40,616 bases of DNA from Escherichia phage EC.W1-9. A program made the translations under genes and the position numbers. Below the pieces are notes generated by a model. That model did not search any database. It saw nothing but the letters and a program-made list of their open reading frames with translations, and was not told the origin of the DNA. Below, in pieces: positions 2,784 to 40,616 of the stretch (its first letter is position 1; every line of letters begins with the position of its first letter). Location of the stretch: sequence record PP445227.1; one strand, 5' to 3'.

Positions 2784-3325
2784 GTGTAACGGTTGAAAAG
2801 ATTGATGTGTTGTCATTCGTTATAACCGGTGCAGAGAGACTAGATCCGGTTCGAGTGATGATTGAAAACTATGAACCTGGAAAGGGAAGAATCACCATCA
2901 CCTGCTACGGAAAAGCGTGGACTGCGGCTTGGTTTGCTATGGGCGGTGATGATGTGCAGACGTTCATTAAGCGAGTCAGCAACGACTATCTAATCGACAA
3001 TTTCGACCCTCAACTGCGAAGCACGGTCGACGATGACAACGATGCAAATCTGCTTTTCGTGAAGTCAGAAATCATAAAGTTACGAAGAGAGAGAGAAATC
3101 GACGCCGTACTGGCTCGCGAAATGTGGTACGAGGCGGAAAACGCCGATGACGTAAAAGAAAGCTGCTGCTGTTTCGGCGTCGGTAACAAACTACTGAATC
3201 TCTTTGGTGATGAGCCGTGGTATGCCAACTGGCCAACGATACCAAACCCGAAATACCAGTATCTGGAACGCGTACTTAATGCAGTGAGAGACGGTCTTAA
3301 GCAAATAGAGAAGGTGGAACCATGA
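2780..3325 (+). CDS. Hypothetical protein
   Basis: GTG at 2780 preceded by AAGGAGG and overlapping the upstream stop; the track ORF begins earlier at 2747. Confidence 0.5.
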   Translation: MSVTVEKIDVLSFVITGAERLDPVRVMIENYEPGKGRITITCYGKAWTAAWFAMGGDDVQTFIKRVSNDYLIDNFDPQLRSTVDDDNDANLLFVKSEIIKLRREREIDAVLAREMWYEAENADDVKESCCCFGVGNKLLNLFGDEPWYANWPTIPNPKYQYLERVLNAVRDGLKQIEKVEP

Positions 3326-3621
3326 CTGTATGTCTTATTGATAAACGTCGACGTGGGCAACAAATACCATCTGTTGAAATGCCGAATCACACATGGTTTT
3401 GCGTACTTGATATCGATGGCATGGATAAGTTTGTTGACACTCGTCATTACTGCGATACCGCAACAGCTACTCCGGCGAAAGCAAAGAAAATGGCTGCTCT
3501 GATAGAAAACTGGACTCCACCTGATGGTTGGTGCAATGGGAATGATCGGGATTGGCATGAAAAAATGAAGGGCTATATCTGCGATTTTTTACGTAAATGC
3601 AACGGATTCAGGGTGATGTGA
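3322..3621 (+). CDS. Hypothetical protein
   Basis: ATG overlaps upstream stop (translational coupling), SD AAGGTGG. Confidence 0.5.
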   Translation: MTVCLIDKRRRGQQIPSVEMPNHTWFCVLDIDGMDKFVDTRHYCDTATATPAKAKKMAALIENWTPPDGWCNGNDRDWHEKMKGYICDFLRKCNGFRVM

Positions 3622-3622
3622 C

Positions 3623-4387
3623 ATGAGCAAGATTGACTATCAGGCACTGCGTGCCAAGGCAGAAAAAGCAACGTGTGGTGTATGGTCGCTCGAATATGGA
3701 GAGAGCCGATTTGATGGTGATGATGCGCTAATTCATCGTGAAGTTGCTGGATATATTCCTATTTGCAGAATTGAAGGAGCGCATCCAGAAAGCGGTTTCG
3801 ATGAAGATTTCCAAATGGAACAGCAGGCCAATGCTGAATTCATCGCCGCAGCCAGTCCATCTACCGTGCTGGCACTGCTGGATGAACGGGAAAGAAACCA
3901 GCAATACATCAAACACCGTGACCAGGAGAACGAGGATATTGCGCTAACGGTAGGGAAGCTGCGTGTTGAGCTTGAGGAAGCAAAATCAAAACTCAACGAG
4001 CAACGCGAGTATTACGAAGGTGTTATCTCGGATGGAAGTAAGCGTATTGCTGAACTGGAGAAAAGCGAAGAGCAACTCATTAACGAGCGTGACCATGCTG
4101 AGTCTGCTTTAGCTGATATGTATTTTGCAGCAACCGGGGATAGGCCTGAGTGGAGTAACTGGTTCGGTTTTTCAGATGCAGTAGATGCCGTAGTTGACAG
4201 AATTGCTGATTTAGAAGCTAAACAGCCATCGCCAGTAGTACCTGAAGGACTGATTAAAGCGGTGCGTTTTTATGAGCAGGTAAAACGTGAGAACCCGCCA
4301 GTCGAAACCGGAGCATGGAAAGACGCTGTTGACTGGGTGCTCAAAGAGGCTTGCCAGGCTGTAAACATTGGCATCAAAGGAGAGTGA
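3623..4387 (+). CDS. Ead/Ea22-like protein
   Basis: 254 aa, acidic coiled-coil centre, sequence style of lambdoid Ead/Ea22 family proteins (recalled). Confidence 0.55.
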   Translation: MSKIDYQALRAKAEKATCGVWSLEYGESRFDGDDALIHREVAGYIPICRIEGAHPESGFDEDFQMEQQANAEFIAAASPSTVLALLDERERNQQYIKHRDQENEDIALTVGKLRVELEEAKSKLNEQREYYEGVISDGSKRIAELEKSEEQLINERDHAESALADMYFAATGDRPEWSNWFGFSDAVDAVVDRIADLEAKQPSPVVPEGLIKAVRFYEQVKRENPPVETGAWKDAVDWVLKEACQAVNIGIKGE

Positions 4388-4388
4388 T

Positions 4389-4904
4389 ATGGCGTTAACA
4401 CACCGCGAACTCTGTCAGATTGCGTACAAGTTCCTTAAGCGCAACGGGTTCAAGGTTTGTTTTCATGACCGCTTTATAGCTGTAACCAGTACCGGAGAAC
4501 AGCCAGATGCTATGGGATTCAGAAATTCAGCATCATGCCTGATAGAGGCGAAGTGTTCTCGTGCTGACTTGTTGGCAGATAGAAAAAAGCGTTTTCGTAA
4601 AAATCCGTCTCTTGGAATGGGCGACTGGCGATTCTTTATTAGTGAGCCAGGAATTATTTCAATTGAGGATTTACCACCTGGCTGGGGATTACTTCACGTT
4701 GTTAACGGAAGAGTACGGAAAGTACATGGGTGGCCCAAGGGTAATTGCTGTTGGGGTAATCCTGACGATAAGCCATTTACTGGAAATAAGCAGGTTGAAT
4801 GCGATTACATGTTATCTGCATTAAGGCGCATGGAGTTGAGAGGGCACCTTAATGAAATATATGACGGTGTAATTGTTAATAAGAAAGAAGGAAACGCAGC
4901 ATGA
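4389..4904 (+). CDS. Putative PD-(D/E)xK-type nuclease
   Basis: ATG at 4389 after AAGGAGAG; motif QPDAMGF…CLIEAK fits the D…E-x-K catalytic spacing. Confidence 0.45.
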   Translation: MALTHRELCQIAYKFLKRNGFKVCFHDRFIAVTSTGEQPDAMGFRNSASCLIEAKCSRADLLADRKKRFRKNPSLGMGDWRFFISEPGIISIEDLPPGWGLLHVVNGRVRKVHGWPKGNCCWGNPDDKPFTGNKQVECDYMLSALRRMELRGHLNEIYDGVIVNKKEGNAA

Positions 4905-5830
4905 TCACTATTACCAAAGAACGCCTGCTGACAATCCAGCAGTGGCGCGAAACATACGGACCTGGTAGCAACGTTGTACTGCCAGCAGAAGAAGCGGAAG
5001 AACTGGCACGAATTGCTCTGGCATCGCTGGAGCAGAATGCACTATCTGGCAACTCTCGGCTTATTCCTGGTGAAGTGTTGTCCGCAATCCGGGAGGTTGC
5101 CAAGATTCGTGCCGATTTCGATGATTTTGACGGTGACAGGCGAGGTATCGGTGATTGTCTGGATGAGGCCGAGCAAGAGCTTATCGTTACCATTAACAAA
5201 TATGCCAGTCAGTTGGCAGCAGAACCGATAGCGACTAATGACGTTCGAGAGCAGCAGACAGCCGTTCCGCCAGTTCCGGAAATACAGGATGATGTCGCGC
5301 AAGCAATTGAAAATCTCAAGCAGAAGTTAGTGGAATGCAATCGCTATAACTACTGCGCAGATGCAGTTAAAGGCGTAGAGGATGCCTGCCACGCTGCCAT
5401 GCTTCATAGTGCCGAACCTGCAAGTAATCATGAAGAGTTGCCGCTTGATTATCTCCAAGGTCAAAAAGATGGTCTTGAATGGGCTGCGCAGCTTGCAGAA
5501 GCAAATCACCCACAAACTGGCGACTGGCTTTACGATGACCCGCTGGAGGTGGCTAAAGCTATCAGAAAAGGTCCTGACATGCCCGAATTCGATGGACCAA
5601 CTCCGGCAACTCCGGATGGTTGGATAAGCTGTAGTGAGCGAATGCCGAACGATAAACAGTATGTTTGGTGTTGGGGTAAGTCTTACGGCTGGACTGAGTG
5701 CGATACCTTCGAAGGGTATTACGATTGGTCGAGAAACAAATGGTGGGCAGTTACTGACGATGGGGAAGAACCGGCATCGAAAGTAACCCACTGGATGCCG
5801 CTACCAGAACCGCCGCAGGAGGTGAAGTGA
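4901..5830 (+). CDS. DUF551-domain phage protein
   Basis: 309 aa; C-terminal DGWISCSERMP…THWMPLPEPP resembles the DUF551 signature (recalled). Confidence 0.55.
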   Translation: MITITKERLLTIQQWRETYGPGSNVVLPAEEAEELARIALASLEQNALSGNSRLIPGEVLSAIREVAKIRADFDDFDGDRRGIGDCLDEAEQELIVTINKYASQLAAEPIATNDVREQQTAVPPVPEIQDDVAQAIENLKQKLVECNRYNYCADAVKGVEDACHAAMLHSAEPASNHEELPLDYLQGQKDGLEWAAQLAEANHPQTGDWLYDDPLEVAKAIRKGPDMPEFDGPTPATPDGWISCSERMPNDKQYVWCWGKSYGWTECDTFEGYYDWSRNKWWAVTDDGEEPASKVTHWMPLPEPPQEVK

Positions 5831-5952
5831 TGAACAAGTGCAACGCTCTGCTTTATGCCATGGTGATTGGTTTCGGCCTGGTTGCTGGTATCCGGGTTTA
5901 TATTACCTGGGAGTCATTAATCAATCTGGCGTGGAGTGCGATTCGTGGCTAA
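5830..5952 (+). CDS. Small hydrophobic protein (40 aa), not in the ORF track
   Basis: ATG overlaps upstream stop (TGATG), GGAGGTGA SD; translation MNKCNALLYAMVIGFGLVAGIRVYITWESLINLAWSAIRG has one predicted TM helix. Confidence 0.45.
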   Translation: MNKCNALLYAMVIGFGLVAGIRVYITWESLINLAWSAIRG

Positions 5953-6247
5953 ATCCCCCGCAGAACGCAAAGCCGCGCAGCGCGCTCGGCAGTCCGCCGC
6001 CGGTGAGCGCAAAATTGAACTGGTGCTGGATAAGCAGGAGCAGGAAATGCTGGCGCGGAACTGCGCCGCCCGGCGCCCTGGTCGCGATCCCTATGAAATG
6101 GCCGAGTACATCGCGCTGCTGATCCGCCAGGATGATGCACGTGTGCGCGGGCGTATAAAATCGATCAGCAGAAACTTTGCGGTAAGTGCGGCGAGAGAGT
6201 TCCCGTTAATTCATGCCCGTGTAATGGTGACTCGCAATGCTGGGTGA
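5936..6247 (+). CDS. Hypothetical basic protein in a locally GC-rich segment
   Basis: 103-aa ORF from GTG; Arg/Ala-rich; start uncertain and overlaps the small ORF. Confidence 0.35.
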   Translation: MRFVAKSPAERKAAQRARQSAAGERKIELVLDKQEQEMLARNCAARRPGRDPYEMAEYIALLIRQDDARVRGRIKSISRNFAVSAAREFPLIHARVMVTRNAG

Positions 6248-6331
6248 CTAAAGGCTGGCATGAAACGAAATTAATAGTGTGACATGTCACGAGTAGATTA
6301 TGCATGATGAATTTGATGGGTTTTGAATACT

Positions 6332-9323: not shown

Positions 9324-9400
9324 TGGCGTGGCATGCAGGATTCGAACCTGCGACCAACCGCTTAGAAGGCGGTTGCTCTGTCCAACTGAGCTAATGCCAC
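9324..9400 (-). tRNA. tRNA-Arg (anticodon UCU)
   Basis: Reverse complement folds as a cloverleaf: acceptor GTGGCAT/ATGCCAC, D-arm GCTC…GAGC, anticodon stem ACCGC/GCGGT with loop CTTCTAA, T-arm GCAGG-TTCGAAT-CCTGC, discriminator G, encoded CCA; 77 nt. Confidence 0.85.
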
Positions 9401-28066: not shown

Positions 28067-28486
28067 ATGCAGCATTTGAGGAAATCAGAAAAAAATAAAG
28101 ACCATGAAATATTGAGTAAGGCCATTGTTCGGGCTTCCAATAATACTGTTATACCTCATGCTGAAGAGTCTGGACAGAAATTTCTTATTCGGTATTTCAC
28201 TGAAAATAGTGCAGTTGAGGAGATTTTAAAACATCAGGGAGGGGAATTTAAATGTGGAAAACTGGCAGATTATGTTCGTCGTGAAACGTCTGAACAAGAA
28301 GTATATTATGCTGATATTAATCATAAGTCAGGTGTGAAAATTGTAATAGGCTATTACACAACTCCCAAAAATGTTATGCATGAGGTCCCAAAGATGTCCG
28401 TCGAGAAATCTCATGCAATCTCGCGCAGGATGTTTGCACGCACTGCCGAAGATATGGCTCAGGAGCTCTACGACGATGCTGAATAA
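28067..28486 (+). CDS. Hypothetical protein, first gene of a two-gene accessory cassette
   Basis: ATG at 28067 after GAAGAGAG; 139 aa; overlaps the next gene by 11 nt. Confidence 0.5.
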   Translation: MQHLRKSEKNKDHEILSKAIVRASNNTVIPHAEESGQKFLIRYFTENSAVEEILKHQGGEFKCGKLADYVRRETSEQEVYYADINHKSGVKIVIGYYTTPKNVMHEVPKMSVEKSHAISRRMFARTAEDMAQELYDDAE

Positions 28487-28982
28487 ATTCCAGGGGTTGG
28501 TTCACCCTGGAATTTTTGGGAAGGACCCTGAGCTAATACCTATCAAAAACGCGTTCATAGATCACTGGCGCTACGGTCATCATAAGGATTTCGGAAAGGA
28601 CACTCTGTTTCGGGATCCACCGAAAGAAATGCTGGAATATCACATACGCCACGTTCACGTAAACATCGGAAACTATACTGACAAGTTTGGTGAGAGCGGT
28701 ACGGAACAATGCTGGAAAAACTGGGCGTCTGGGAAGAAAGACAAGACCACTAACAAGCATAAAAAGATCCCAACCAGTGACGTGTATGTGATTTATCTGG
28801 TCACATCTGAACGCCATGCCTTCCTTCTGGATTATTGGGATGAACCAGCACATAAGACAGTAGAAATTGACGAGCAGAAGCAAAAATTAGTTGTCGAGTG
28901 TGACAGAATTTTGCGGCTGAAAAAGTTAGAATCCATGCCGCGCGATGCTAGTTTGTGGGACCCAGAATTTTACGACTGTTAA
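28476..28982 (+). CDS. Hypothetical protein, possible toxin-like component (weak YafO-like motifs)
   Basis: 168 aa; motifs HVHVN and AFLLDYWDEPAHK resemble YafO-family toxin blocks as recalled from memory; followed by a terminator. Confidence 0.4.
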   Translation: MLNKFQGLVHPGIFGKDPELIPIKNAFIDHWRYGHHKDFGKDTLFRDPPKEMLEYHIRHVHVNIGNYTDKFGESGTEQCWKNWASGKKDKTTNKHKKIPTSDVYVIYLVTSERHAFLLDYWDEPAHKTVEIDEQKQKLVVECDRILRLKKLESMPRDASLWDPEFYDC

Positions 28983-29458: not shown

Positions 29459-31333
29459 ATGACGGTCTCAACCGAAGTTGACCACAACGAATACACCGGT
29501 AACGGCGTTACGACATCGTTTCCGTATACTTTTCGAATTTTCAGAAAATCAGACCTGGTTGTTCAGGTGTCTGATCTGAACGGAAACGTAACAGAATTGG
29601 TCCTGGATACCGGTTATACGGTAACTGGGGCGGGCACTTATAGTGGCGGTTCTGTGGTTCTTCCGTCTCCGCTTGCTACTGGATGGCGAATTACGATAGA
29701 TCGTGTGCTTGATGTAGTGCAGGAGACAGACCTTCGCAATCAGGGAAAATTTTTCCCCGAAGTGCATGAAGATGCCTTTGACTACCTGACGATGCTGATC
29801 CAGCAATGTTTTGGGTGGTTCAGACGTGCATTGATGAAGCCCTCTCTGCTTGCAAAATATTACGATGCAAAGCAAAACAGAATTTCTAACCTTGCAGATC
29901 CATCACTTGAGCAGGATGCTGTAAATAATCGCTCAATGCGTAATTATGTCGATGCTGCAATCGCCGGGGTTGTTGGTGGTTTTGGTTGGTTTATTCAGTA
30001 TGGTTCTGGGGCTGTGTACCGAACGTTCCAGGATAAGATGAGAGACACCATTAGTGTTCGTGATTTTGGTGCAAAAGGAGACGGCATAACAGATGATACT
30101 GTAGCAATTCAAAATGCTATTAATGCAGTACCAGAAGGGGCTATACTTGGATTTTATGGTGGTGAATTTGTTTTTGATAAGGTTGAATTGTTTAAGCCAA
30201 TAACATTAGTTGGTGATGCAACGTTAATTCACAACGGATTTAGAATAAAATCTAGCAGAATCCGATCACTTTTATCTGGCGTTCAGAAATGCAAGGATTA
30301 CTCCGAGTCTTCAAGAGCATTTTATTGCTATGCAAATGAAGACCAAAGAGATTATGACGATATTCAGATTTTATTTAATAGATTTGAAGGTTTCTTTTAC
30401 TCTACGGCATTTGTTGCAAAAAACTATTATTTGGAGAATGACCCTAATTCAAGAATTGTCAAAAACACAAAAGTAATAGGGTGTACATCAGTTGCTCCTG
30501 ATTCTGTAAATGCCGGTCATTTTCAACATATAGGCGTTACAAATGCTGAAACATCACATAACTCAACTTATGGCGGACAAAATGCAACATCATACAACTT
30601 CATTAACCAGAATGGATTTGTAAGGATTATAGGAAATTATGACCATAACAATAGCTATGGTTCATGTGAGCTTGAGAACTCAATGGTGAGTAACTCAGTC
30701 ATATCAGGTAATACGTTTTCGTCATATTTATGGGTGGATGATACAAGTAATGTTACTATTTCTGGAAATACAGTTTCATCAAGGATCAAAGTAACATCGC
30801 AAACTGACGATGTTCATAATATAACCATATCAGCAAATACCACAAAACGGATTACTATAGAGCAATTTGGAGAATCTCCAACAGGTCTGGTATATGGTGC
30901 ATTAATTTCCTGCAACACTATTACTGGCGACAGTGATGGAAGTTCAGACATTTTATGTACGTCACTTGTTACAGGTGAAATTTCATCAAATTATTGTCAT
31001 GGATCAGAAAAAAATATATCAATTGTCCGCCTGGATTCTTCTGATATAACTGTTAGAAATAATAAAGGAAACAAAGGATTACTTACAATAAGTAACGATG
31101 GTGGAAGGATAATTGAATATGGCAATGATTCTATGGTTCTGTCTGGAAGCATAGATAGCAGACATATACATAATTTATTACATCCAGACACATCGTATTT
31201 AGACCTACCGGGGAAATATCTGCACGGAACTAAATATACTGGCAGTATCCCCCCGGTTCCACAGGAATTGTATCACTTCAAATACCATCAGGGGCAAGCC
31301 TTGTTTTCAGGGGTGTTTCTATATGGGTTCTAA
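29459..31333 (+). CDS. Tailspike: T7 gp17-like N-terminal adaptor domain plus right-handed beta-helix (pectate-lyase-like) domain; frame broken near the 3' end
   Basis: N-terminus EYTGNGVTTSFPYTFRIFRKSDLVV resembles the gp17 N-terminal domain; RDFGAKGDGITDDTVAIQNAI is a beta-helix hallmark; the frame ends 26 codons after a C6 run while a second frame continues. Confidence 0.7.
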   Translation: MTVSTEVDHNEYTGNGVTTSFPYTFRIFRKSDLVVQVSDLNGNVTELVLDTGYTVTGAGTYSGGSVVLPSPLATGWRITIDRVLDVVQETDLRNQGKFFPEVHEDAFDYLTMLIQQCFGWFRRALMKPSLLAKYYDAKQNRISNLADPSLEQDAVNNRSMRNYVDAAIAGVVGGFGWFIQYGSGAVYRTFQDKMRDTISVRDFGAKGDGITDDTVAIQNAINAVPEGAILGFYGGEFVFDKVELFKPITLVGDATLIHNGFRIKSSRIRSLLSGVQKCKDYSESSRAFYCYANEDQRDYDDIQILFNRFEGFFYSTAFVAKNYYLENDPNSRIVKNTKVIGCTSVAPDSVNAGHFQHIGVTNAETSHNSTYGGQNATSYNFINQNGFVRIIGNYDHNNSYGSCELENSMVSNSVISGNTFSSYLWVDDTSNVTISGNTVSSRIKVTSQTDDVHNITISANTTKRITIEQFGESPTGLVYGALISCNTITGDSDGSSDILCTSLVTGEISSNYCHGSEKNISIVRLDSSDITVRNNKGNKGLLTISNDGGRIIEYGNDSMVLSGSIDSRHIHNLLHPDTSYLDLPGKYLHGTKYTGSIPPVPQELYHFKYHQGQALFSGVFLYGF

Positions 31334-31587
31334 TTAGAGATGTTAGCAATAACAATATATCGTCATTCAGAATTGATGGTTCATATAGAGTTGTTGGTGG
31401 AAGTGTTGGTCTTAGTTTTGCTGATGCTTATTCGAAACTCGGGGTGGATGCAAACTCTATAACAGTGTCAAACAATAACAGCACTTCTGACAATATCAGC
31501 ATAGCAATTAAAAACACAGATTCATCAAAAACCCTTCAGGTTACTGTTATGCCTGAGGTTTCAAGCAGGTTAGGTATTGAGGAATAG
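31234..31587 (+). pseudogene. Alternative-frame continuation of the tailspike C-terminus
   Basis: Frame with codons at 31234… is open to TAG 31585-31587 and encodes beta-rich …GSTGIVSLQIPSGASLVFRGVSIWV…ISSFRIDGSYRVVGGSVGLSFADAYSKLGVDANSITVSNNNSTSDNISIAIKNTDSSKTLQVTVMPEVSSRLGIEE; the two frames meet at CCCCCC 31249-31254. Confidence 0.5.
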
Positions 31588-31663
31588 CATCATATATAAT
31601 TATTTTAATGTTAATGCCGTCTTCTTGTTGGCGGCTTATTTGTGAAAATGGAATGAGTTATTT

Positions 31664-31963
31664 ATGATGAATATAGATGTTGATATAACACCAATTCTTC
31701 ACGCACTTTGCGCTGTTGTCGCACAAGTTCTGGTCGGTCTTTTTACCGGAAACTGGGCTTACGGTGCGATAGCCGGTTGTACGTTCTTCATTGCGCGTGA
31801 ACACACCCAGGCAGAATATCGCTGGATAGAAAAGTTTGGGAAAGGGAAACGTATCAACATGCCGTGGTGGGGAGGTTTTGATCCGCGCGTATGGGATGTT
31901 GGAAGCCTGTTTGACTTTGTTGTTCCTGTTACTGTTTGTTTTTGTGTTTATTTCTCTATTTGA
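31664..31963 (+). CDS. Small membrane protein
   Basis: 99 aa with two hydrophobic segments; between the tailspike and the lysis cassette. Confidence 0.45.
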   Translation: MMNIDVDITPILHALCAVVAQVLVGLFTGNWAYGAIAGCTFFIAREHTQAEYRWIEKFGKGKRINMPWWGGFDPRVWDVGSLFDFVVPVTVCFCVYFSI

Positions 31964-33983: not shown

Positions 33984-34155
33984 CATGGCATTTTTCATGG
34001 TACTGATTTCCGGTGACGGTATATAAAACGGTACGAGAAAAATTCATATTTGGAAAAATGTTATCACTCAATTGGTTATGGTATCCGTAAATAATTGAGT
34101 GGGAATGATTAACAGCTAACTCATAGCAAATCATTCCTATTCAGATGCCAACTCA

Positions 34156-34187
34156 ACCCTCTGTTTTTGCAGAGGGTTTTTGTTTTT
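34156..34187 (+). terminator. Rho-independent terminator after the lysis genes
   Basis: ACCCTCTG-tttttg-CAGAGGGT followed by TTTTTGTTTTT. Confidence 0.65.
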
Positions 34188-34243
34188 ATGTATTCATTTC
34201 TATTCACTCTACACCATATTTTTCGGCGGTACAGGTGACGGTA

Positions 34244-34258
34244 TTACCTTAAAGGTAT
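34244..34258. promoter_or_regulatory. Palindromic site TTACC-N5-GGTAt (imperfect)
   Basis: ATTACCttaaaGGTATA upstream of the integrase. Confidence 0.4.
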
Positions 34259-34300
34259 ACTCTCATACCGTCATGAAAATGGTTTCTATACGGGTGAATT

Positions 34301-35551
34301 GTGCTTACCGATACAAAATTAAAAAACCTCAAGCCGCAGGACAAACTGTACAAGGTCTCCGATCGTGACGGGCTGTATGTAGCTGTGCTTACGTCAGGCA
34401 CGGTCTCATTTCGTTATGACTACCGTATCAACGGTCGCCGCGAAACACTGGTAATCGGGCAGTATGGGCGTGACGGTATCAGCCTGGCAGAAGCGCGGGA
34501 AGAACTGATTGCTGCAAAGAAGCTGCTTAAAGCAGGCCAGTCACCGGCTGCGGCTAAACGTGACGGTATCAAAAAGATTCGTGGTGCCGAAACGTTTGCG
34601 GTACATACCGACAGTTATATGAAACACGTCATCCTGGCTGAAAGTACCCGCGCAATGAAGCAGGCAGTGATCGACCGTGACATACTTCCGGTTCTTGGCA
34701 ACAAAATGATGGCTGAAATTACCACATCGATGGTTCGTGATTTGTGTGACCGGATTGTCGAACGCGGTGGCCGGGCAACAGCAGTGCAGGCCAGGGAGAT
34801 CATCAGCAGCGTATACCGTCACGCCAATGACCGTGGTCATGGTTTGTTTAATCCTGCGGCTGACATTAAGCCTTCGTCTATCGCCATATTTAAACCACGA
34901 GAGCGAACACTGACACCAGAAGAAATTGGCCTGTTCTTCCGCACGTTGGATGCCATTGGTGCTATGGGCACTATGAAAATGGCTTTAAAACTGGTGCTTA
35001 TCACTATGGTTCGTAAGGGCGAATTCACCAATGCAACGTGGGATGAAATAGATTTTAAAAAATGGACATGGACAATTCCTTCAGACCGCATGAAGGGAAG
35101 CCGGGCGCATGTTATTTACCTGCCTAAACAGGCTCAGGATATATTGGTCGGGTTGCAGATGTGCGCTGGTGGAAGTGAATATCTGGTTCCTGGTCGTTAC
35201 AATTTCCGGAAGCCATTATCTAATGCCGCGCTGAACTCTCTGATCGACAGAACGGTGAAAATAATAAATGAAGATGGTGAGCATATTCAGGATTTCACCG
35301 TACACGATATGCGCCGTACAGCCAGTACGTTGTTGCATGAGGCTGGTTATCCTTCAGACTGGATTGAAAAGGCTCTGGCACATGAGCAGAAAGGTGTGCG
35401 CGCCGTATATAACAAAGCGGAATACGCCAGACAGCGCGCCTACATGTTGCAGCAGTGGGCCGATATGATAGATTCCTGGATTAACGGGGAGCATACGGAT
35501 CTGATTCCGTTCTCCCCGTCGAAGTTTGAGAAGTGGATGGCGAGGGAATAA
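34301..35551 (+). CDS. int: Tyrosine integrase
   Basis: N-terminus (M)LTDTKLKNLKP…DGLYVAV typical of the DUF4102-type integrase arm domain; C-terminal catalytic region with HDMRRT and AHEQ…VRAVYNKAEY (Tyr) signatures. Confidence 0.85.
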   Translation: MLTDTKLKNLKPQDKLYKVSDRDGLYVAVLTSGTVSFRYDYRINGRRETLVIGQYGRDGISLAEAREELIAAKKLLKAGQSPAAAKRDGIKKIRGAETFAVHTDSYMKHVILAESTRAMKQAVIDRDILPVLGNKMMAEITTSMVRDLCDRIVERGGRATAVQAREIISSVYRHANDRGHGLFNPAADIKPSSIAIFKPRERTLTPEEIGLFFRTLDAIGAMGTMKMALKLVLITMVRKGEFTNATWDEIDFKKWTWTIPSDRMKGSRAHVIYLPKQAQDILVGLQMCAGGSEYLVPGRYNFRKPLSNAALNSLIDRTVKIINEDGEHIQDFTVHDMRRTASTLLHEAGYPSDWIEKALAHEQKGVRAVYNKAEYARQRAYMLQQWADMIDSWINGEHTDLIPFSPSKFEKWMARE

Positions 35552-35554
35552 CGT

Positions 35555-35749
35555 TTAATTATTCTGCTGATTTTCTTCCATCTCGGCTTCTGCTGCCAGT
35601 GATTCAATTTTATCTGTGAATATTGCTGACAGTGTTGCAAATTCAGCATCAGTGACAGCGGGAATTGGAACAAACCTGATCCCGCTGTGTGCAAGCATGT
35701 TTGCAGTTTCAAGGCATTTCCTTAAATCTGCTGGTGATGCCCTGTTCAT
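35555..35749 (-). CDS. Small hypothetical protein, last gene of the leftward operon
   Basis: ATGA overlap with the methyltransferase stop; 64 aa. Confidence 0.45.
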   Translation of the reverse strand: MNRASPADLRKCLETANMLAHSGIRFVPIPAVTDAEFATLSAIFTDKIESLAAEAEMEENQQNN

Positions 35750-36396
35750 GCTGCACGCTCCCGCCCCTGGTTGTCTGTTGGTGACAGCGGAGCATTGCTG
35801 AATGCATTTGTTAATCTGGCAATATCCAACGCGTATCCAGGGTGTAGTTGCACTGCCGGGTCTTCGCACTGATTACCCCAAACATCGAAACCATGAGACG
35901 ACTGGCGGGCGAACAGTTCAATGCGAGAAACATCGCCTAACAATTGCACAAGTTTTTCACGAACGATATCTGGTTTTCTTGAATGCTCAAGCCGCGGTGC
36001 GGTAAATGACTGAACGATCCCTGCATTAATGCGCGTAGGTAGTTTTCCCTTTACTGCAAACAGGCAATCTTCACTATTGGCGCGAGTCATGTGACCCATA
36101 CCCATAACCAGTTTATCTGGTTGTCGACTACCACATTTTATCCACGTGAATCCCTTCATGGTCATCAGACGGAATCCCCAGGCCTCAACAACTTTTAGTG
36201 CTTCGAGTGGTTGTGTTGGCACCCACCACATGGCCAACAGACAGTTTTCATCGGCCAAATCCCACACAGGAAGGCGGCAGATATCCAGCACACTCATAAC
36301 CGGATATTTAAAACCGGCACCGCGATTACCATCTGCGGCTTTGTCCCGGTATACCCAGGGTGGATCTGCATAGATTAGTGTGTATTTCTTAGTCAT
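35746..36396 (-). CDS. MT-A70-family DNA N6-adenine methyltransferase
   Basis: Catalytic DPPW motif (LIYADPPWVY); ATG at 36396 after GGGGTGG. Confidence 0.75.
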   Translation of the reverse strand: MTKKYTLIYADPPWVYRDKAADGNRGAGFKYPVMSVLDICRLPVWDLADENCLLAMWWVPTQPLEALKVVEAWGFRLMTMKGFTWIKCGSRQPDKLVMGMGHMTRANSEDCLFAVKGKLPTRINAGIVQSFTAPRLEHSRKPDIVREKLVQLLGDVSRIELFARQSSHGFDVWGNQCEDPAVQLHPGYALDIARLTNAFSNAPLSPTDNQGRERAA

Positions 36397-36640
36397 AAAC
36401 CACCCCACAACATCCTATGCCGCTATAGTCGCCACGGCGAAGGCCGTTACCTTTTGTGATACATTGGTCCCTGCGAACCGCGATCCTTGCACGCTCAACA
36501 TCACCAGAAGCAACATCCATACACTGAAGCCAAAGGTGAGCGGCAATGCGGAACTGCCCTTTTTTCTCTCTTTCAATCGCGCGTTTTTCGATCTCTATCG
36601 CCGCAGGAGTAACGGCGACAATCTTTGACGGACTGCGCAT
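36389..36640 (-). CDS. Hypothetical small protein
   Basis: Start taken at the ATG at 36640 (AAGGT upstream); overlaps the methyltransferase start by 8 nt. Confidence 0.4.
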   Translation of the reverse strand: MRSPSKIVAVTPAAIEIEKRAIEREKKGQFRIAAHLWLQCMDVASGDVERARIAVRRDQCITKGNGLRRGDYSGIGCCGVVYD

Positions 36641-36797
36641 TGAAACCTTGTTCATGTGATATTTTTCAAGTCGGCTTAACTTTCTCACTTAATCCAACCC
36701 TCTCTGAAAATTAATGCCAGCAGATAAAGCCATGCTGAAACAGAGGCCAGGAATAAGTACCATCCTGACCATTTGCTCCAGTGCCTTAGCAGCACAC

Positions 36798-37046
36798 TCA
36801 TGCCGCGTTGCTCACGGGACGATATACACGTTGCTGAACAGGAGGTTTTTTACCCTGGAACTCTGCCGGGCTTGCTGCCTGACGTTCATCAAGCCAACGC
36901 TCAACTTCATCACGGTTCCATGCGCAGCGTTTATCGGTGATATACCAGCGTTTAGGAAATTCCCCTGCGCGCTCCATACGGTCGATAGTGCTCCATGACA
37001 GTGGAACCACCGCCAGGAGTTCCTTCTTACCTAATGCACCTTTCAT
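36798..37046 (-). CDS. AlpA/Xis-like small DNA-binding protein
   Basis: KKELLAVVPLSWSTIDRMERAGEFPKRWYI matches the AlpA-type HTH pattern; GAGAGG SD. Confidence 0.65.
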   Translation of the reverse strand: MKGALGKKELLAVVPLSWSTIDRMERAGEFPKRWYITDKRCAWNRDEVERWLDERQAASPAEFQGKKPPVQQRVYRPVSNAA

Positions 37047-37095
37047 AAATACCTCTCTTGGTTGCAGTGCGGCGCGCGTGGCGCCGCGGTGGTGG

Positions 37096-38037
37096 TTACA
37101 TAGATGTTTCGTTTAATTCTTCCCGACGAACGCTGTAAACGTCGGTGGCTTTTGCCAGCAGTTCGTCATCATCTGAAAGTTTTTGTGCAATGTATTTGTA
37201 AGCCTTATCCAGTTCGGAGACAGTGCTGTAATTCATCGCTGCGCTGGTAAAGGCCATCAGCATTTCTTCTGGATCACGGCTGTCCGATTTACGCGTTTGC
37301 TCATCAGGCTTTTTCGCTGGTTTAGCGTTGATCAGACTGTTCATTCCCGCAGCAGTGGTCGTTTGCGGAGTAATGTCTCGCTCAACGCGCGGTGCCGTTT
37401 CCTGTAATTCGTCTGGGGTGTAGACGCCCATGATTACGTCAGGACAGTGCAGGCGAGACCAGCGTTTTGTCGCAAGGTATGCGAGTTGTTGTTTCGGATC
37501 ACTGGCCCAAAGTGTGGAGTTTCTTACCTGTGCTTGAGACAGCATTAACTCAAGCACTCGAGGTTGATCCTCGCCCTTCATGGTTGCCCATACGCGAACA
37601 CCGCAGCCTTCTTCGTCTTTTAGAGTCCAGCCTGGTGCGATATATGGATTGCCGTTTTTGGATGTTTTCTCAACAAACTTACCGATCACGCGTTCCCACG
37701 GCCCGAACCACTCGTAGTTGATGCGATCTTTTGTTGGCGACATCGTTGAGATAACTGCGTTTACTAATTGGGCTTCATAACCTAGCGTGCCGTTCACAAC
37801 ATGGGTTTTCTGAGCCACGGCAAACGGGTTCATTCCCCACTGCGCAGCCTGCATTGCCACGGCCATGCAATCAGCTGGTTTCCCGGCGAGGTGCGCCGGT
37901 ACCGTTACGCGGCTTTGCGCCATTACCTCGGCGAATTTCATCAGTTGGTTCAAGCCGTCTGGGCTGAAAATAGTTGCAGCAGTTCCAGCGATTGCTGTGT
38001 CTACTGGTGCGTTGATGTTTGCGATGTCGTTGCTCAT
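37096..38037 (-). CDS. recT: RecT-family single-strand annealing protein
   Basis: RecT-like length and sequence pattern; ATG at 38037 overlaps the upstream exonuclease stop (ATGA). Confidence 0.7.
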   Translation of the reverse strand: MSNDIANINAPVDTAIAGTAATIFSPDGLNQLMKFAEVMAQSRVTVPAHLAGKPADCMAVAMQAAQWGMNPFAVAQKTHVVNGTLGYEAQLVNAVISTMSPTKDRINYEWFGPWERVIGKFVEKTSKNGNPYIAPGWTLKDEEGCGVRVWATMKGEDQPRVLELMLSQAQVRNSTLWASDPKQQLAYLATKRWSRLHCPDVIMGVYTPDELQETAPRVERDITPQTTTAAGMNSLINAKPAKKPDEQTRKSDSRDPEEMLMAFTSAAMNYSTVSELDKAYKYIAQKLSDDDELLAKATDVYSVRREELNETSM

Positions 38038-38855
38038 ATGTACATATCCTGTTTGCGTGCCCACTCAGGGCGTTTAATGATTTCCACACCGCCCCATTCA
38101 TCATTGATGCGGCATTCGTGATAGGTATTCAGATCCCGGCGGAACAGAGCGTGCCCGGCATCGACATCCTGCGCATCCAGCTCGAACACGCGTACCGGAT
38201 ACCGACCACAATCAATGCTTTCGCTCACGGCAAGAAAGAAAAAACCATGCGGCTGACCAGTAACCCTCATTGCGCCTTCGCGGTACATTGCGTCCTGCAC
38301 GTGGTAGCGGAATTCCTCGATGTGGCGTGCAAAACGGTCCATATCTGCAACCTTTTTCACGTCGACGATCACGTTGTGCTCGTTCAGCCATTTGTCTGGA
38401 CGAATTCGGCACAACTCCCCCGTCTCTTCATCGTTCCAGTACATTGATGCTTCGCAGTAACCAGGTGCTTCCAGCATCCAGCGTGCCGCCGGGTGAGCCA
38501 TTGCGCTATCACGCATCAGCTCCAGTTTCCGCCACTGCTCGGCATCAAGTACCGTAATCCCCATATCCGCCACATCACGAAGAAATTCCTCTTCGTCAGC
38601 TTTACCTTGTTTCGTCCGACGATCGAATTTCGGTGAAACAATGAAGCGTTTGTCGAACTCTCCAGGCTCCAGAAGCAGACAGTGCAATGCGGTTCCCATA
38701 TCCAGTGCAGACTTTTTCTCTTCGTCTTCTGGTGCTGCCTGAACCCATTTAAGAAGCGCCGGATTCTTGGCAACCATGTCCAGTTGCGACTTACTCACGC
38801 CGTCACCGGCGTGGTAGTCTTCGTTGCTGATGTCGAAATAAATTCCCGGTTTCAT
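38034..38855 (-). CDS. RecE-like 5'-3' exonuclease (PD-(D/E)xK, exonuclease VIII C-terminal domain type)
   Basis: N-terminus GIYFDISNEDYHAGDGVSKSQLD and later D…E-x-K motifs resemble the RecE nuclease domain; paired with RecT. Confidence 0.65.
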   Translation of the reverse strand: MKPGIYFDISNEDYHAGDGVSKSQLDMVAKNPALLKWVQAAPEDEEKKSALDMGTALHCLLLEPGEFDKRFIVSPKFDRRTKQGKADEEEFLRDVADMGITVLDAEQWRKLELMRDSAMAHPAARWMLEAPGYCEASMYWNDEETGELCRIRPDKWLNEHNVIVDVKKVADMDRFARHIEEFRYHVQDAMYREGAMRVTGQPHGFFFLAVSESIDCGRYPVRVFELDAQDVDAGHALFRRDLNTYHECRINDEWGGVEIIKRPEWARKQDMYI

Positions 38856-39151
38856 GCCGCGTCCCTCTGTCCATCAAGCTGATCCGCCAGATCCCAGCGG
38901 GCGATAATTGCCATTGCCTCTCGCCGATAGGCATCCATCAGTTCTTCGAACTCAGGGCTGTCTTTAGCAGCCTCCAGTACTTCCTGGCGAACGCCTTTAA
39001 CTGTTACAACGTCGAAAGTTGATGCCAGTTGATGAAGCCGGATACTCTCAATCAGTTCAACTTGTCGGTCATATAGCTGTTCTGACAGACGGTAGTCCTT
39101 GTCGAATGCCAGCATGATTTTTTGAAGATTTTTCTGCTGATTAACGTTCAT
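38852..39151 (-). CDS. Hypothetical protein
   Basis: ATG at 39151 preceded by GGGAGGG; overlaps the RecE start (ATGA). Confidence 0.5.
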   Translation of the reverse strand: MNVNQQKNLQKIMLAFDKDYRLSEQLYDRQVELIESIRLHQLASTFDVVTVKGVRQEVLEAAKDSPEFEELMDAYRREAMAIIARWDLADQLDGQRDAA

Positions 39152-39153
39152 TA

Positions 39154-39306
39154 TCAGCCCTCCCATATCTCGTTATCGTTGGCCACATCGCGAGCTTCTT
39201 TGCTGACGAAAGCCCACTTAATGCCTTCCTGTAAGGTGCGGAACTTCCAGCTCATGAATCCGCATGCAGTAACGCAGTACCAACCGTTGATGATTTTCCA
39301 CTGCAT
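39154..39306 (-). CDS. Small Cys/Trp-rich protein (50 aa), first gene of the leftward operon; not in the ORF track
   Basis: Translation MQWKIINGWYCVTACGFMSWKFRTLQEGIKWAFVSKEARDVANDNEIWEG; SD GAGGTAA upstream; stop 2 nt before the next gene's SD-ATG. Confidence 0.45.
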   Translation of the reverse strand: MQWKIINGWYCVTACGFMSWKFRTLQEGIKWAFVSKEARDVANDNEIWEG

Positions 39307-39325
39307 AACTTGTTACCTCGGTCTG

Positions 39326-39340
39326 TTACCGTTGAGGTAA
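39326..39340. promoter_or_regulatory. Palindromic site TTACC-N5-GGTAA
   Basis: TTACCgttgaGGTAAT 20 bp upstream of the leftward operon's first gene; an extra TTACC half-site at 39313. Confidence 0.5.
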
Positions 39341-39387
39341 TAATTATGCGTATATGGTTTGATGTCAATAGATATGAGTTAAAAAAA

Positions 39388-39402
39388 TTACCCGTTAGGT
39401 AA
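39388..39402. promoter_or_regulatory. Palindromic site ATTACC-N5-GGTAAT (perfect)
   Basis: Second site in the same control region. Confidence 0.5.
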
Positions 39403-39414
39403 TCGAATAGGCAA

Positions 39415-39438
39415 TAAAAAAGCCGCCATAAGGCGGCT
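39415..39438 (-). terminator. Rho-independent terminator after the repressor-like gene
   Basis: On the minus strand GCCGCC-ttat-GGCGGC followed by TTTTTT. Confidence 0.65.
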
Positions 39439-39459
39439 TACTTACTGAAAAATATGGTT

Positions 39460-40044
39460 TTATTGTTTGTTTTTTTCGTTCTGGTTGATGACAAATTCAA
39501 TGTAACTTTCGATCTTTGCTTTCTCGGTTTCGGGTAACAATGCGTAGCGCGAGCGATCATAGTTGATGGTCGCAGGGTCGTGCGGGTGAATCAGTAATTC
39601 ATAGCCGTGACGCCCGAATGCGGATGCAACATTCTCCAGGGTGGAAATGGAAACGCTGACCTCATTGTTTAACAGGCGGCTGATTGTCACCTGGGCTACG
39701 CCGGATGCGCGGTGAAGTTTTCCCTGTGTTGAAAGGTCGCGGCTTTCGCTCATCCAGCGTTCCAGGTTGTGAGCCGCCAGCTGGCCAATGTCGCTTGGGC
39801 CGACAGGCTGAAAACCTTCCTGAGAAAGCGAGCGATCGATATCAAGCCAGTTACGGGGTTTATTGGCGGCAGCTTCAATTTTTCGCGCAACCTGATCGCC
39901 GATAACCTTCTTACCAAGAGCCCAGCGGTTTACCAGATTTGCCTGAGTTCCAAGTTTTTCAGCCATCCGCGTCTGAACACCATTGAATTCACGGTCGATC
40001 AAGTCGTTGAGATTTTGCCTGCGGACGTCCTGGATACTTTTCAT
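39460..40044 (-). CDS. Repressor-like DNA-binding protein with two HTH-like segments
   Basis: 194 aa; segments LGTQANLVNRWALGKKVIGDQVARKIE and SGVAQVTISRLLNNEVSVSISTLENVASAFG look like XRE-type HTH units; divergent from a Cro-like gene across a triple-site region; no S24 peptidase motif noticed. Confidence 0.5.
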   Translation of the reverse strand: MKSIQDVRRQNLNDLIDREFNGVQTRMAEKLGTQANLVNRWALGKKVIGDQVARKIEAAANKPRNWLDIDRSLSQEGFQPVGPSDIGQLAAHNLERWMSESRDLSTQGKLHRASGVAQVTISRLLNNEVSVSISTLENVASAFGRHGYELLIHPHDPATINYDRSRYALLPETEKAKIESYIEFVINQNEKNKQ

Positions 40045-40098
40045 TTTCTGGAAAATCGCCTCATATATGAATCAGTAGATGATTCAATTTAAAGCAAT

Positions 40099-40113
40099 AT
40101 TACCCAACAGGTA
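40099..40113. promoter_or_regulatory. Operator-like site 1 of the divergent control region (ATTACCcaacaGGTAAA)
   Basis: TTACC-N5-GGTAA between the repressor-like and Cro-like genes. Confidence 0.55.
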
Positions 40114-40115
40114 AA

Positions 40116-40130
40116 TGCACCTCATGGGTA
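40116..40130. promoter_or_regulatory. Operator-like site 2 (GCACCtcatgGGTAA, imperfect)
   Basis: Centre 17 bp from site 1. Confidence 0.35.
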
Positions 40131-40146
40131 ACTATCCTTGATTTTT

Positions 40147-40161
40147 GTTACCTTATGGGTG
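40147..40161. promoter_or_regulatory. Operator-like site 3 (TTACCttatgGGTGA, imperfect)
   Basis: Centre 31 bp from site 2; triplet arrangement. Confidence 0.45.
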
Positions 40162-40198
40162 AATATTTATTATCTGAAATAAATATCAGGCAATAGCT

Positions 40199-40429
40199 AT
40201 GAGCGATAACGGACATTTCGATTTCAAAAAGCACTGGCTTGCACTTACTCCGGATGAGCGTGAAGCCTTCGCACAGGAAGCCGGAACGACGAGTCACTAT
40301 ATCCAGACTCACTTAACAGGTAAGCGCAAAATGCCAGGTAAAGTATTGATGAATGGGCTTTTTAAAGCCTGTAAAACAAGACAATGGCTGCGCTCAAAAG
40401 CAGAACTGGCATACTTCTTCTACTCATGA
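40199..40429 (+). CDS. Cro-like small DNA-binding protein
   Basis: 76 aa, transcribed divergently from the repressor-like gene, followed by a terminator; possible HTH in FAQEAGTTSHYIQTHLTGKR. Confidence 0.45.
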   Translation: MSDNGHFDFKKHWLALTPDEREAFAQEAGTTSHYIQTHLTGKRKMPGKVLMNGLFKACKTRQWLRSKAELAYFFYS

Positions 40430-40461
40430 TATCCAGCTACAACCCTCTGTAGACCGCCACC

Positions 40462-40483
40462 CGGCGGTCTTTTCATATCTATT
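40462..40483 (+). terminator. Rho-independent terminator downstream of the Cro-like gene
   Basis: GACCGCC-accc-GGCGGTC followed by TTTT. Confidence 0.6.
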
Positions 40484-40484
40484 C

Positions 40485-40499
40485 GTACCTCAAAGGTAA
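40485..40499. promoter_or_regulatory. Palindromic site gTACC-N5-GGTAAT (imperfect)
   Basis: Directly after the terminator; AACCAAATATGGTT follows. Confidence 0.4.
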
Positions 40500-40579
40500 T
40501 AAAAAACCAAATATGGTTGATATTTTTTTTGTGTCAGCACAAAATGACCGTAATCCCAATACTAATAACAGGGCTTACC

Positions 40580-40616
40580 ATGGAAATCATTACACGTATT
40601 GATGCCGCAAAGCGCG
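40580..40616 (+). CDS. 5' end of a gene truncated by the window edge (MEIITRIDAAKR…)
   Basis: ATG at 40580; the frame runs off the window and is in phase with the partial ORF at nt 1-164 if the sequence is circular. Confidence 0.4.
   Translation, partial: MEIITRIDAAKR

Follow-up and report, generated by a model that had tools for sequence, protein, structure and literature searches.

A one-nucleotide deletion in a C7 tract probably inactivates the tailspike gene of a Uetakevirus prophage

In the window, by which I mean the whole stretch of 40,616 nucleotides analysed here, the tailspike gene is a Uetakevirus tailspike gene by descent, yet it is a frameshifted allele, and the likely explanation is a genuine and heritable deletion that shortened a run of seven C residues to six and cost the protein its C-terminal domain, in other words an ordinary inactivating mutation of a prophage tailspike. 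Of the four causes that a first-pass annotation of the sequence had proposed for the break, a pseudogenising mutation is the best supported, phase variation draws weak support, sequencing or assembly error is unlikely and a programmed frameshift is unsupported. The truncated allele is not new to the databases, since RefSeq already has it as WP_072224373.1, annotated as an ordinary CDS under the name 'glycosyl hydrolase family 28-related protein' with no frameshift flag. The practical consequence is that this accession passes as a normal protein but is a frameshift-truncated tailspike, and that the 709-aa form should be used for host-range prediction, depolymerase mining and prophage-activity calls.

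The truncated reading frame runs from 29459 to 31333 on the plus strand and encodes 624 amino acids, 599 of them native and the last 25 out of frame, before it ends at a TAA. It departs from the native frame at a CCCCCC homopolymer (31249..31254, plus strand), the site of the one-nucleotide deletion, where C7 is both the ancestral and the majority state; Pro599 is the last native residue, and the product terminates in ...GSIPPVPQELYHFKYHQGQALFSGVFLYGF* by way of an aberrant stretch of 25 codons (VPQELYHFKYHQGQALFSGVFLYGF) with the premature stop behind it (31256..31333, plus strand). The divergence at the C run and the atypical tail behind it had been noticed in the first-pass annotation, and the coordinates agree with it. 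The orphaned coding sequence of the C-terminal domain, G600 to E709, consists of 110 native codons and a TAG at 31255..31587 on the plus strand and is readable only in the -1 frame, which has a TAA at 31231-31233, is open from 31234 as had been claimed, and stops at 31585-31587. No single reading frame runs through the C-terminal domain, the break lying at 31249-31254, and the two frames joined at the C run give exactly the intact 709-aa homologue P0001 (WP_024946529.1). The -1 frame is not a chance open reading frame, because its translation matches the C-terminus of intact homologues at 100% identity, and a comparison with 1.84 billion cluster representatives finds it at 35-60% identity as the very C-terminal end of proteins of 550-800 aa. 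The earlier suggestion that this downstream frame is tailspike-like and rich in beta strands was borne out by the alignment to intact tailspikes, in which it is the -1 frame that matches as the genuine tailspike C-terminus, and by a model in which it forms a beta-sandwich; furthermore, none of the diverged homologues ends at the 31333 stop with unlike sequence downstream, and all of them read through.

The intact state of the gene is represented by phiv142-3 Orf6 (QGF19612.1) and WP_024946529.1, which possess C7 and a single 2130-nt frame encoding 709 aa, whereas in the window the tract is C6 and the frame is split. They are the same gene (99.4-100% DNA identity, with 99.4% for phiv142-3, whose taxonomy line reads Uetakevirus), they encode the same anchor, beta-helix and C-terminal domain, and they share the window gene's location upstream of the holin/endolysin cassette. 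The proposed one-nucleotide indel in the C homopolymer is thereby located, intact homologues having C7 and the window C6 in sequences that are otherwise alike, and the C6 allele carries no compensating downstream change relative to the intact orthologues. The full gene was found in 32 of 5426 complete E. coli genomes, 30 with C7 and two with C6, the latter being IR53017 from China and CUVET19-970 from Thailand; tract length is the sole difference between the window's gene and the copies in the 19 complete genomes listed at 100.0% identity. In addition, a scan of IMG/VR and metagenome copies for tract lengths N5-9 returned C7 in 12/12 and no other length. Two draft assemblies with C6 match IR53017 at 100% identity over 21.9 kb, and across NCBI, ENA and Logan the exact 624-aa product occurs on 55 contigs and the exact 709-aa product on 713, counts that include several assemblies of the same isolates. 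With two complete genomes and several drafts carrying it, the C6 allele is heritable, and the allele as called in these assemblies is very probably real.

The lost domain is best appreciated against the architecture of the whole protein. The N-terminal virion-anchor domain (approximately residues 1-180; 29459..29998, plus strand) is of the Uetakevirus, epsilon15/phiV10-like type: the first 582 bases of the gene have 98% DNA identity to other Uetakeviruses such as vB_EcoP_ZX5, and in a PDB sequence search the domain aligns with Dpo31/Dpo36 tailspike residues 1-184 (E=3e-32). It is followed by a right-handed parallel beta-helix, the catalytic and receptor-binding body (approximately residues 197-563; 30047..31147, plus strand), where Pfam PF12708, a pectate-lyase-like beta-helix, matches residues 198-255 (E=1e-11), AlphaFold2 pLDDT is mostly >90 over residues 200-560, and the best Foldseek matches are the tailspikes of Sf6, an Acinetobacter phage and HK620. 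The 110 residues beyond the deletion were modelled by AlphaFold2 with a pLDDT of 85.9, and G600-E709 is predicted to form an eight-stranded beta-sandwich. This domain is kept as the extreme C-terminus of 15 representative clusters, with R618, G662, N686, P699 and R704 invariant among related proteins. The PDB sequence search gave no match covering it, and a fold search with the domain alone gave only weak matches (E 2e-3 to 2e-2, best 1.7e-3; TM 0.50-0.55), those to the C-terminal domains of T4 gp9, the Kp9 tail fibre and the vB_ApiP_P1 tailspike being suggestive only. Two Pfam readings were considered and set aside, a Coat_P identity for the C-terminal 110 aa because it was sub-threshold (E=0.067), and a sialidase reading from a match to the endosialidase N-terminal extension because it fell below the cut-off (E=1e-3). 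The same order of anchor, beta-helix and C-terminal beta-sandwich is found in the tailspikes of Sf6, HK620 and P22 and in Acinetobacter and Klebsiella phage depolymerases (2vbk, 4xkw, 6e1r, 7xy1), although their sequence identity to the window's tailspike is only 10-15%. The receptor-binding module occurs in hosts of several O serogroups, and its target may be something other than O-antigen (PMC10408124).

The course of events that best accommodates these observations would begin with a one-nucleotide deletion in the C7 run, the most slippage-prone G/C tract of the phage, after which translation would exit the native frame behind Pro599, add 25 unrelated residues and stop, giving a product of approximately 69 kDa as compared with 77 kDa for the intact protein. 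Such a product would keep the virion-anchor domain and the beta-helix and be without the whole conserved C-terminal beta-sandwich, and because this domain is removed the tailspike is probably defective, either in assembly or in being poorly functional, by analogy with other tailspikes and depolymerases. The LEC domain of KP32gp38 is a C-terminal module needed for trimerisation or function (PMC13082707), and the C-terminus of the P22 tailspike acts as an auto-chaperone (PMC3357383). KP34gp57 with C-terminal trimming yields monomers that keep enzymatic activity (PMC10653864), so some residual glycanase activity of the truncated product is conceivable as well. The prophage would then probably be unable to make fully infectious particles, a sign of early prophage decay, and full-length protein would arise in trace amounts at most, through spontaneous -1 slippage on C_CCC_CCG (of the order of 0.1%) or reversion of the tract. 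If so, it is a clean case in which a prophage has lost a receptor-binding gene to mutation at the position where that gene is most prone to slippage.

The instability of the tract is also visible in a second phage type. The receptor-binding module, which spans the beta-helix and C-terminal domain and reaches into the beginning of the next ORF downstream (30042..31908, plus strand), has 97.9% DNA identity to the tailspike of a P22-like prophage, and IR53017 and CUVET19-970 each hold this second copy with C7 in the same 60-nt context. These P22-like (Lederbergvirus-type) tailspikes of 663 aa (WP_052273607.1, P0067) share the C7 tract and are 96-98% identical to the window's in the beta-helix, the C-terminal domain and the downstream small ORF; however, they possess another N-terminal head-binding domain (PF09008) and therefore fit a different virion. 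In IR53017 the P22-like prophage sits at another integration site, adjoining bioA-ybhB, and its tailspike is intact in genomes whose Uetakevirus copy is broken. The P22-like lineage has frameshift alleles of its own, namely a C6 (assemblies L011-L014) marked by the linked SNP GGAACTG instead of GGAATTG, and a C8 (L015 and L016), so that C6/C7/C8 tract-length polymorphism exists on at least three independent backgrounds and the tract, with independent C6 and C8 alleles in the paralogue, is a hot spot for indels. All other G/C runs of the 40.6-kb element are at most six bases long, and C7, the ancestral state, would exceed them all. In three genomes the P22-like copy is inactivated by an IS1 insertion, and the uninterrupted P22-like copies in complete genomes are frameshifted in 0/7. 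The parallel C6, C8 and IS1 events in the paralogue fit gradual prophage domestication or decay and not a new mechanism.

The same polymorphism could be read as a phase-variable contingency locus, in which hypermutation of the C run would reversibly switch the tailspike, or a linked phenotype of the lysogen, ON at C7 and OFF at C6 or C8. The tract has indeed changed in length independently three times (C6 twice, C8 once) across two phage lineages with this module in common, no other G/C run of the phage is as long, and there is a precedent in the polyG tracts of receptor-binding protein genes in Campylobacter phages. Sorensen et al. 2021 reportedly described hypermutable polyG tracts of this kind in Fletchervirus, tracts said to be longer than 7 nt and to switch at a high frequency that was demonstrated experimentally. 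There too a G/C homopolymer lies in a receptor-binding gene and its length shifts the reading frame; however, the tract discussed here is 7 nt, short for a contingency locus, its variants are rare, and any switching would be hypothetical. OFF alleles occur in 2/32 complete genomes with the Uetakevirus copy and are absent from the seven uninterrupted P22-like copies and the 12 from IMG/VR and metagenomes, so that length polymorphism among relatives is present but neither a sufficiently long tract nor common OFF variants accompany it. Neutral decay at the most mutable site would be expected to leave such a pattern, and the IS1 insertions into the same gene in three genomes point to erosion of the prophage in general and not to a dedicated switch. 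The ON and OFF states could nevertheless matter to the host, because phiv142-3 orf6, the intact orthologue, is transcribed in lysogens and has a reported effect on growth in serum and in iron-limited medium (PMC7724020). Considering both sides, a contingency locus is unlikely. It is quite improbable, too, that the C7 tract, conserved in a module common to two unrelated temperate podovirus lineages, is a low-frequency, reversible C6/C7/C8 switch whose C6 state is leaky through C_CCC_CCG, although such a switch would modulate a tailspike with reported effects on the fitness of lysogens in serum and when iron is limiting. On this reading a C6 allele could also be repaired through recombination, the P22-like prophage in the same host supplying its 1.87-kb copy of 97.9% identity.

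There is similarly little chance that the true sequence is C7 and that one C was under-called, as happens in long-read consensus, even though long reads are classically prone to such a loss in a homopolymer, from C7 to C6, L009 among the C6 assemblies is visibly noisy with 19 gap openings in 20 kb, and some contigs break exactly at the tract, leaving the partial proteins P0128 and P0131 that end in ...GSIP(P). The two complete C6 genomes come from different laboratories as well as different countries, they are joined by the clean drafts that match over 21.9 kb, and the contigs with the exact 624-aa product derive from several sources, short-read Logan assemblies included. Moreover, both of these complete assemblies show C7 in the paralogous copy, where the 60-nt context is identical, which argues against systematic homopolymer miscalling, and it is this internal C7 copy together with the independent assemblies showing C6 that makes sequencing or assembly error unlikely.

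Programmed recoding, in which the C6 allele would be expressed by -1 ribosomal frameshifting or transcriptional slippage on C_CCC_CCG to give the 69- and 77-kDa products in a set ratio, is very improbable, being unsupported both because homologues have a single frame and because a stimulatory element is lacking. The deletion did create an in-frame X_XXZ_ZZN heptamer, C_CCC_CCG (31249..31255, plus strand), in the correct register, and a -1 slip there restores the wild-type 709-aa protein exactly. In E. coli, C_CC.C_CC.G belongs to the heptamers that shift by -1 at >0.10% with no stimulator present, over a background of approximately 0.055% (PMC4066793), so slippage at about 0.1% could occur and restore the wild-type protein, but this is far below the tailspike need of a virion burst. 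The two-frame arrangement is not conserved, homologues at 35-99% identity encoding the C-terminal domain in frame with the body. The 85 nt downstream (31256-31340) fold no better than shuffled sequence (z = -0.48; 55/200 shuffles fold at least as well), and no GGAGG-like, Shine-Dalgarno-like motif occurs upstream in AAATATACTGGCAGTAT. The dnaX (A_AAA_AAG), IS911 and IS3 transposase sites likewise use a zero-frame X_XXZ_ZZN heptamer at which a -1 shift leads to a longer functional product; unlike them, the window has neither a downstream hairpin or pseudoknot nor an upstream Shine-Dalgarno-like stimulator, its arrangement is not kept in homologues, and its CCN-type heptamer has low intrinsic efficiency.

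Returning to the inactivating deletion as the preferred reading, all 40,616 bases of the window match, at 100% identity and circularly permuted, the Uetakevirus prophage between guaA and yfgI in E. coli IR53017, and the window would represent the excised, circularly permuted form of this phiv142-3-like prophage, probably from an E. coli chromosomal background shared with a strain named ST648. By the annotation of IR53017 and phiv142-3, the tailspike gene follows the antirepressor/moron region and precedes the holin-endolysin-Rz cassette. Directly downstream of it lies a conserved hydrophobic ORF of 99 aa (31664..31963, plus strand), for which Pfam gave no match and which accompanies the receptor-binding module in the two phage types alike. 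A literature search on strains IR53017 and CUVET19-970 found no papers. Over 18.5 kb of the prophage and 25 kb of flanking chromosome, C6 and C7 genomes are 100% identical, so that a SNP comparison aimed at a single C6 clone found no informative site there, and the drafts L007 and L008 are identical to IR53017. Only two observations hint at a common subclone: the two complete C6 genomes have near-equal prophage coordinates (1,528,573 vs 1,528,301), and they differ by a single SNP in 7 kb at the second prophage.

The gene concerned encodes the tailspike of a temperate podovirus in the genus Uetakevirus (epsilon15/phiV10-like), and its plus-strand reading frame at 29459-31333 yields a 624-aa product ending in ...GSIPPVPQELYHFKYHQGQALFSGVFLYGF*, made up of 599 native residues followed by 25 read out of frame. 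Another 110 native residues exist only in the -1 frame of the same strand, which opens at 31234 directly after a TAA, reads ...PPGSTGIVSLQIPSGASLVFRGVSIWVLIRDVSNNN...SRLGIEE* and closes with the stop at 31585-31587. The first-pass annotation had placed this break at a CCCCCC run (31249-31254, plus strand) inside the ORF and ascribed it to a 1-nt indel; the geometry is borne out by the sequence and the indel is supported, given that the two frames spliced at the run reproduce the intact 709-aa reference WP_024946529.1 exactly and that intact relatives carry seven Cs (C7). The truncated form is already in RefSeq as WP_072224373.1 (624 aa) without a frameshift flag. RefSeq calls the truncated ORF an ordinary CDS, 'glycosyl hydrolase family 28-related protein', not a frameshifted pseudogene, and leaves the orphaned coding sequence of the C-terminus (31255-31587, plus strand) without annotation.

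The nearest phage record, Escherichia phage phiv142-3, is 99.4% identical across the whole query but longer by one base, and Orf6 there forms a single 2130-nt ORF. The full gene is present in 32 of 5426 complete E. coli genomes; only two of these, IR53017 (human, Beijing) and CUVET19-970 (dog, Bangkok), agree with the window at every base and so carry a broken (OFF) allele of this Uetakevirus copy, while in the remaining 30 the gene is one base longer. Direct inspection gave C6 in the window and in these two genomes and C7 in phiv142-3 and FDAARGOS_497, and a search of IMG/VR and JGI/ENA metagenome contigs with a pattern tolerating 5-9 bases at the tract returned C7 in 12 of 12 copies. Because 30 of 32 genomes are one base longer, the intact protein has 709 aa and all 12 of those copies are C7, this length is the ancestral as well as the majority state, and the window carries a 1-nt deletion from it. 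The known intact gene is phiv142-3 orf6, of which the window holds a frameshifted allele; that orthologue is transcribed in lysogens, and APEC DE142 grows less in serum and in iron-limited medium when it is deleted (PMC7724020). Near-identical receptor-binding proteins have been found in hosts of serogroups O1, O5, O51 and O102 (PMC10408124).

Both complete C6 genomes also carry a second copy of the 1.87-kb receptor-binding module on a P22-like prophage beside bioA-ybhB (2948-4813 in the extracted sequences L029/L030; 3481061-3483131 in IR53017; 3532458-3534528 in CUVET19-970), intact at C7 and 97.9% identical to window positions 30042-31908 across 1868 nt. The protein search showed that 663-aa proteins combine a P22-type head-binding domain with the receptor-binding part (~residues 181-709), the latter at 96-98% identity. 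The same specificity module is therefore present in two unrelated podovirus prophages of one chromosome, and recombinational repair could potentially use the second copy as its template.

The best explanation, which I regard as very likely, is that the tailspike has been truncated by a genuine, heritable C7-to-C6 deletion. At the assembly level a real C6 allele is favoured: the exact 624-aa product lies on 55 contigs, as against 713 for the exact 709-aa product (NCBI, ENA, Logan), the two complete C6 genomes differ in both laboratory and country of origin, and two drafts (GCA_048333955.1 and GCA_053371015.1) are 100% identical to IR53017 across 21.9 kb, C6 included. A systematic homopolymer miscall is disfavoured because it should hit both module copies, yet the second reads C7 within those same assemblies. 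The C6 call in L009, a plainly noisy assembly, was given no weight as support for C6. The sequences compared are identical between C6 and C7 genomes; that the Uetakevirus C6 carriers IR53017 and CUVET19-970 share a subclone is suggested by nearly identical chromosomal coordinates of the prophage and by their differing at just one SNP along 7 kb of the second prophage. Two partial proteins from draft assemblies, P0128 (...GSIPPGSTG) and P0131 (...GSIP), end exactly at the homopolymer, and contig breaks at or next to the tract could stem from assembly-graph ambiguity between two near-identical copies or from tract heterogeneity.

The deletion also creates an in-frame heptamer, C_CCC_CCG (31249-31255), at which a -1 shift would give the exact wild-type protein, and this motif is listed as weakly shifty, with >0.10% -1 frameshifting in E. 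coli when no stimulator is present (as C_CC.C_CC.G) against a background of ~0.055% (Sharma et al., PMC4066793), so that trace full-length protein from the C6 allele is plausible. A low-rate reversible tract switch, which the heptamer might make leaky and the co-resident paralogue might repair, seems to me highly improbable. A designed ratio of two products is not plausible, and programmed recoding, an option raised in the first-pass annotation, finds no support beyond the heptamer: any stimulatory RNA fold in the 85 nt downstream is no better than shuffles (z = -0.48), a search upstream found no SD-like element, and all homologues keep the protein in a single reading frame.

AlphaFold2 places a beta-helix at ~residues 197-562 of the intact protein (pLDDT mostly >90), then a short linker and a C-terminal beta-sandwich at ~592-703 (pLDDT mostly 85-94), and on this model the frameshift at residue 599/600 takes away essentially the whole C-terminal domain. 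The best structural neighbours of the whole model are the Sf6, Acinetobacter-phage and HK620 tailspikes; the domain modelled alone has eight strands (pLDDT 85.9) and weak fold matches to the C-terminal domains of T4 gp9, the Klebsiella phage Kp9 fibre and the vB_ApiP_P1 tailspike (E 2e-3 to 2e-2, TM 0.50-0.55). A complete HMMER search of 1.84 billion cluster representatives located it in 15 clusters, at the extreme C-terminus of full-length members (550-800 aa) and with several invariant positions, so it appears to be a conserved functional module and not a dispensable tail. In other phage receptor-binding proteins such modules can drive trimerisation or serve as auto-chaperones: KP34gp57 trimmed at its C-terminus loses trimerisation and keeps enzyme activity (PMC10653864), and the P22 tailspike C-terminus has an auto-chaperone function (PMC3357383). 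From these roles and the loss of a conserved domain, I infer that the 68.8-kDa product would be defective in trimer assembly and virion function.

Pseudogenisation of prophage genes by homopolymer indels is common, and the kind of event is already known. All other G/C runs in the phage are of six bases or fewer, and the ancestral C7 would be its longest G/C homopolymer. The same tract is the site of a frameshift in several paralogues of the 663-aa type: P0129 and P0130 (578 aa) carry the same ...PPVPQELYHF... tail, and P0132 (580 aa) and P0133 (581 aa) end ...PPRFHRNCITSNTIRGKPCFQGCFYMGSN. In DNA, the P22-like copy is C6 in four Logan assemblies (L011-L014) and C8 in GCA_036688445.1 and SRR27535585, both lengths marked by a linked SNP 12 nt downstream (GGAACTG, not GGAATTG). 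Because C6 and C8 both occur on this P22-like allele, apart from the Uetakevirus C6, the tract has undergone no fewer than three independent length changes. Such variants are nonetheless uncommon: going by the length of their alignments, the ten complete genomes that have a P22-like copy all seem to be C7, and in three of them (SCZE5, ECJXMCRH7, XH993) IS1A breaks the gene, leaving a 509-aa product (P0134), which is another independent inactivation of the same receptor-binding gene. Knock-outs that recur by such different routes resemble the ordinary decay of structural genes in prophages, focused at the most mutable site.

The IR53017 prophage, between guaA and yfgI, is 100% identical to all 40,616 bases of the window, which is its circular permutation (1-34110 the right part, 34094-40616 the left); the 17-bp overlap at 34094-34110 is presumably the att core, and the integrase follows directly. 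Many genomes, that of the strain named ST648 among them, have an identical 25-kb chromosomal flank. PGAP marks four consecutive small genes in the IR53017 record (window ~4389-6282, plus strand) as frameshifted or incomplete, a DUF551 fragment among them, which suggests further prophage erosion. A phage-borne tRNA-Arg (anticodon TCT; 9324-9400, minus strand) lies between the terminase region and the portal gene. The moron found between the antirepressor region and the tailspike consists of a gene that RefSeq annotates as a YafO-family type II toxin (28476-28982, plus strand, without a Pfam match and overlapped by an ORF at 28371-28982), accompanied upstream by a small partner ORF. In the Uetakevirus and the P22-like setting alike, the tailspike is followed directly by a 99-aa hydrophobic ORF (31664-31963, plus strand), also without a Pfam match, which appears to travel with the receptor-binding module and could be a membrane or exclusion protein.
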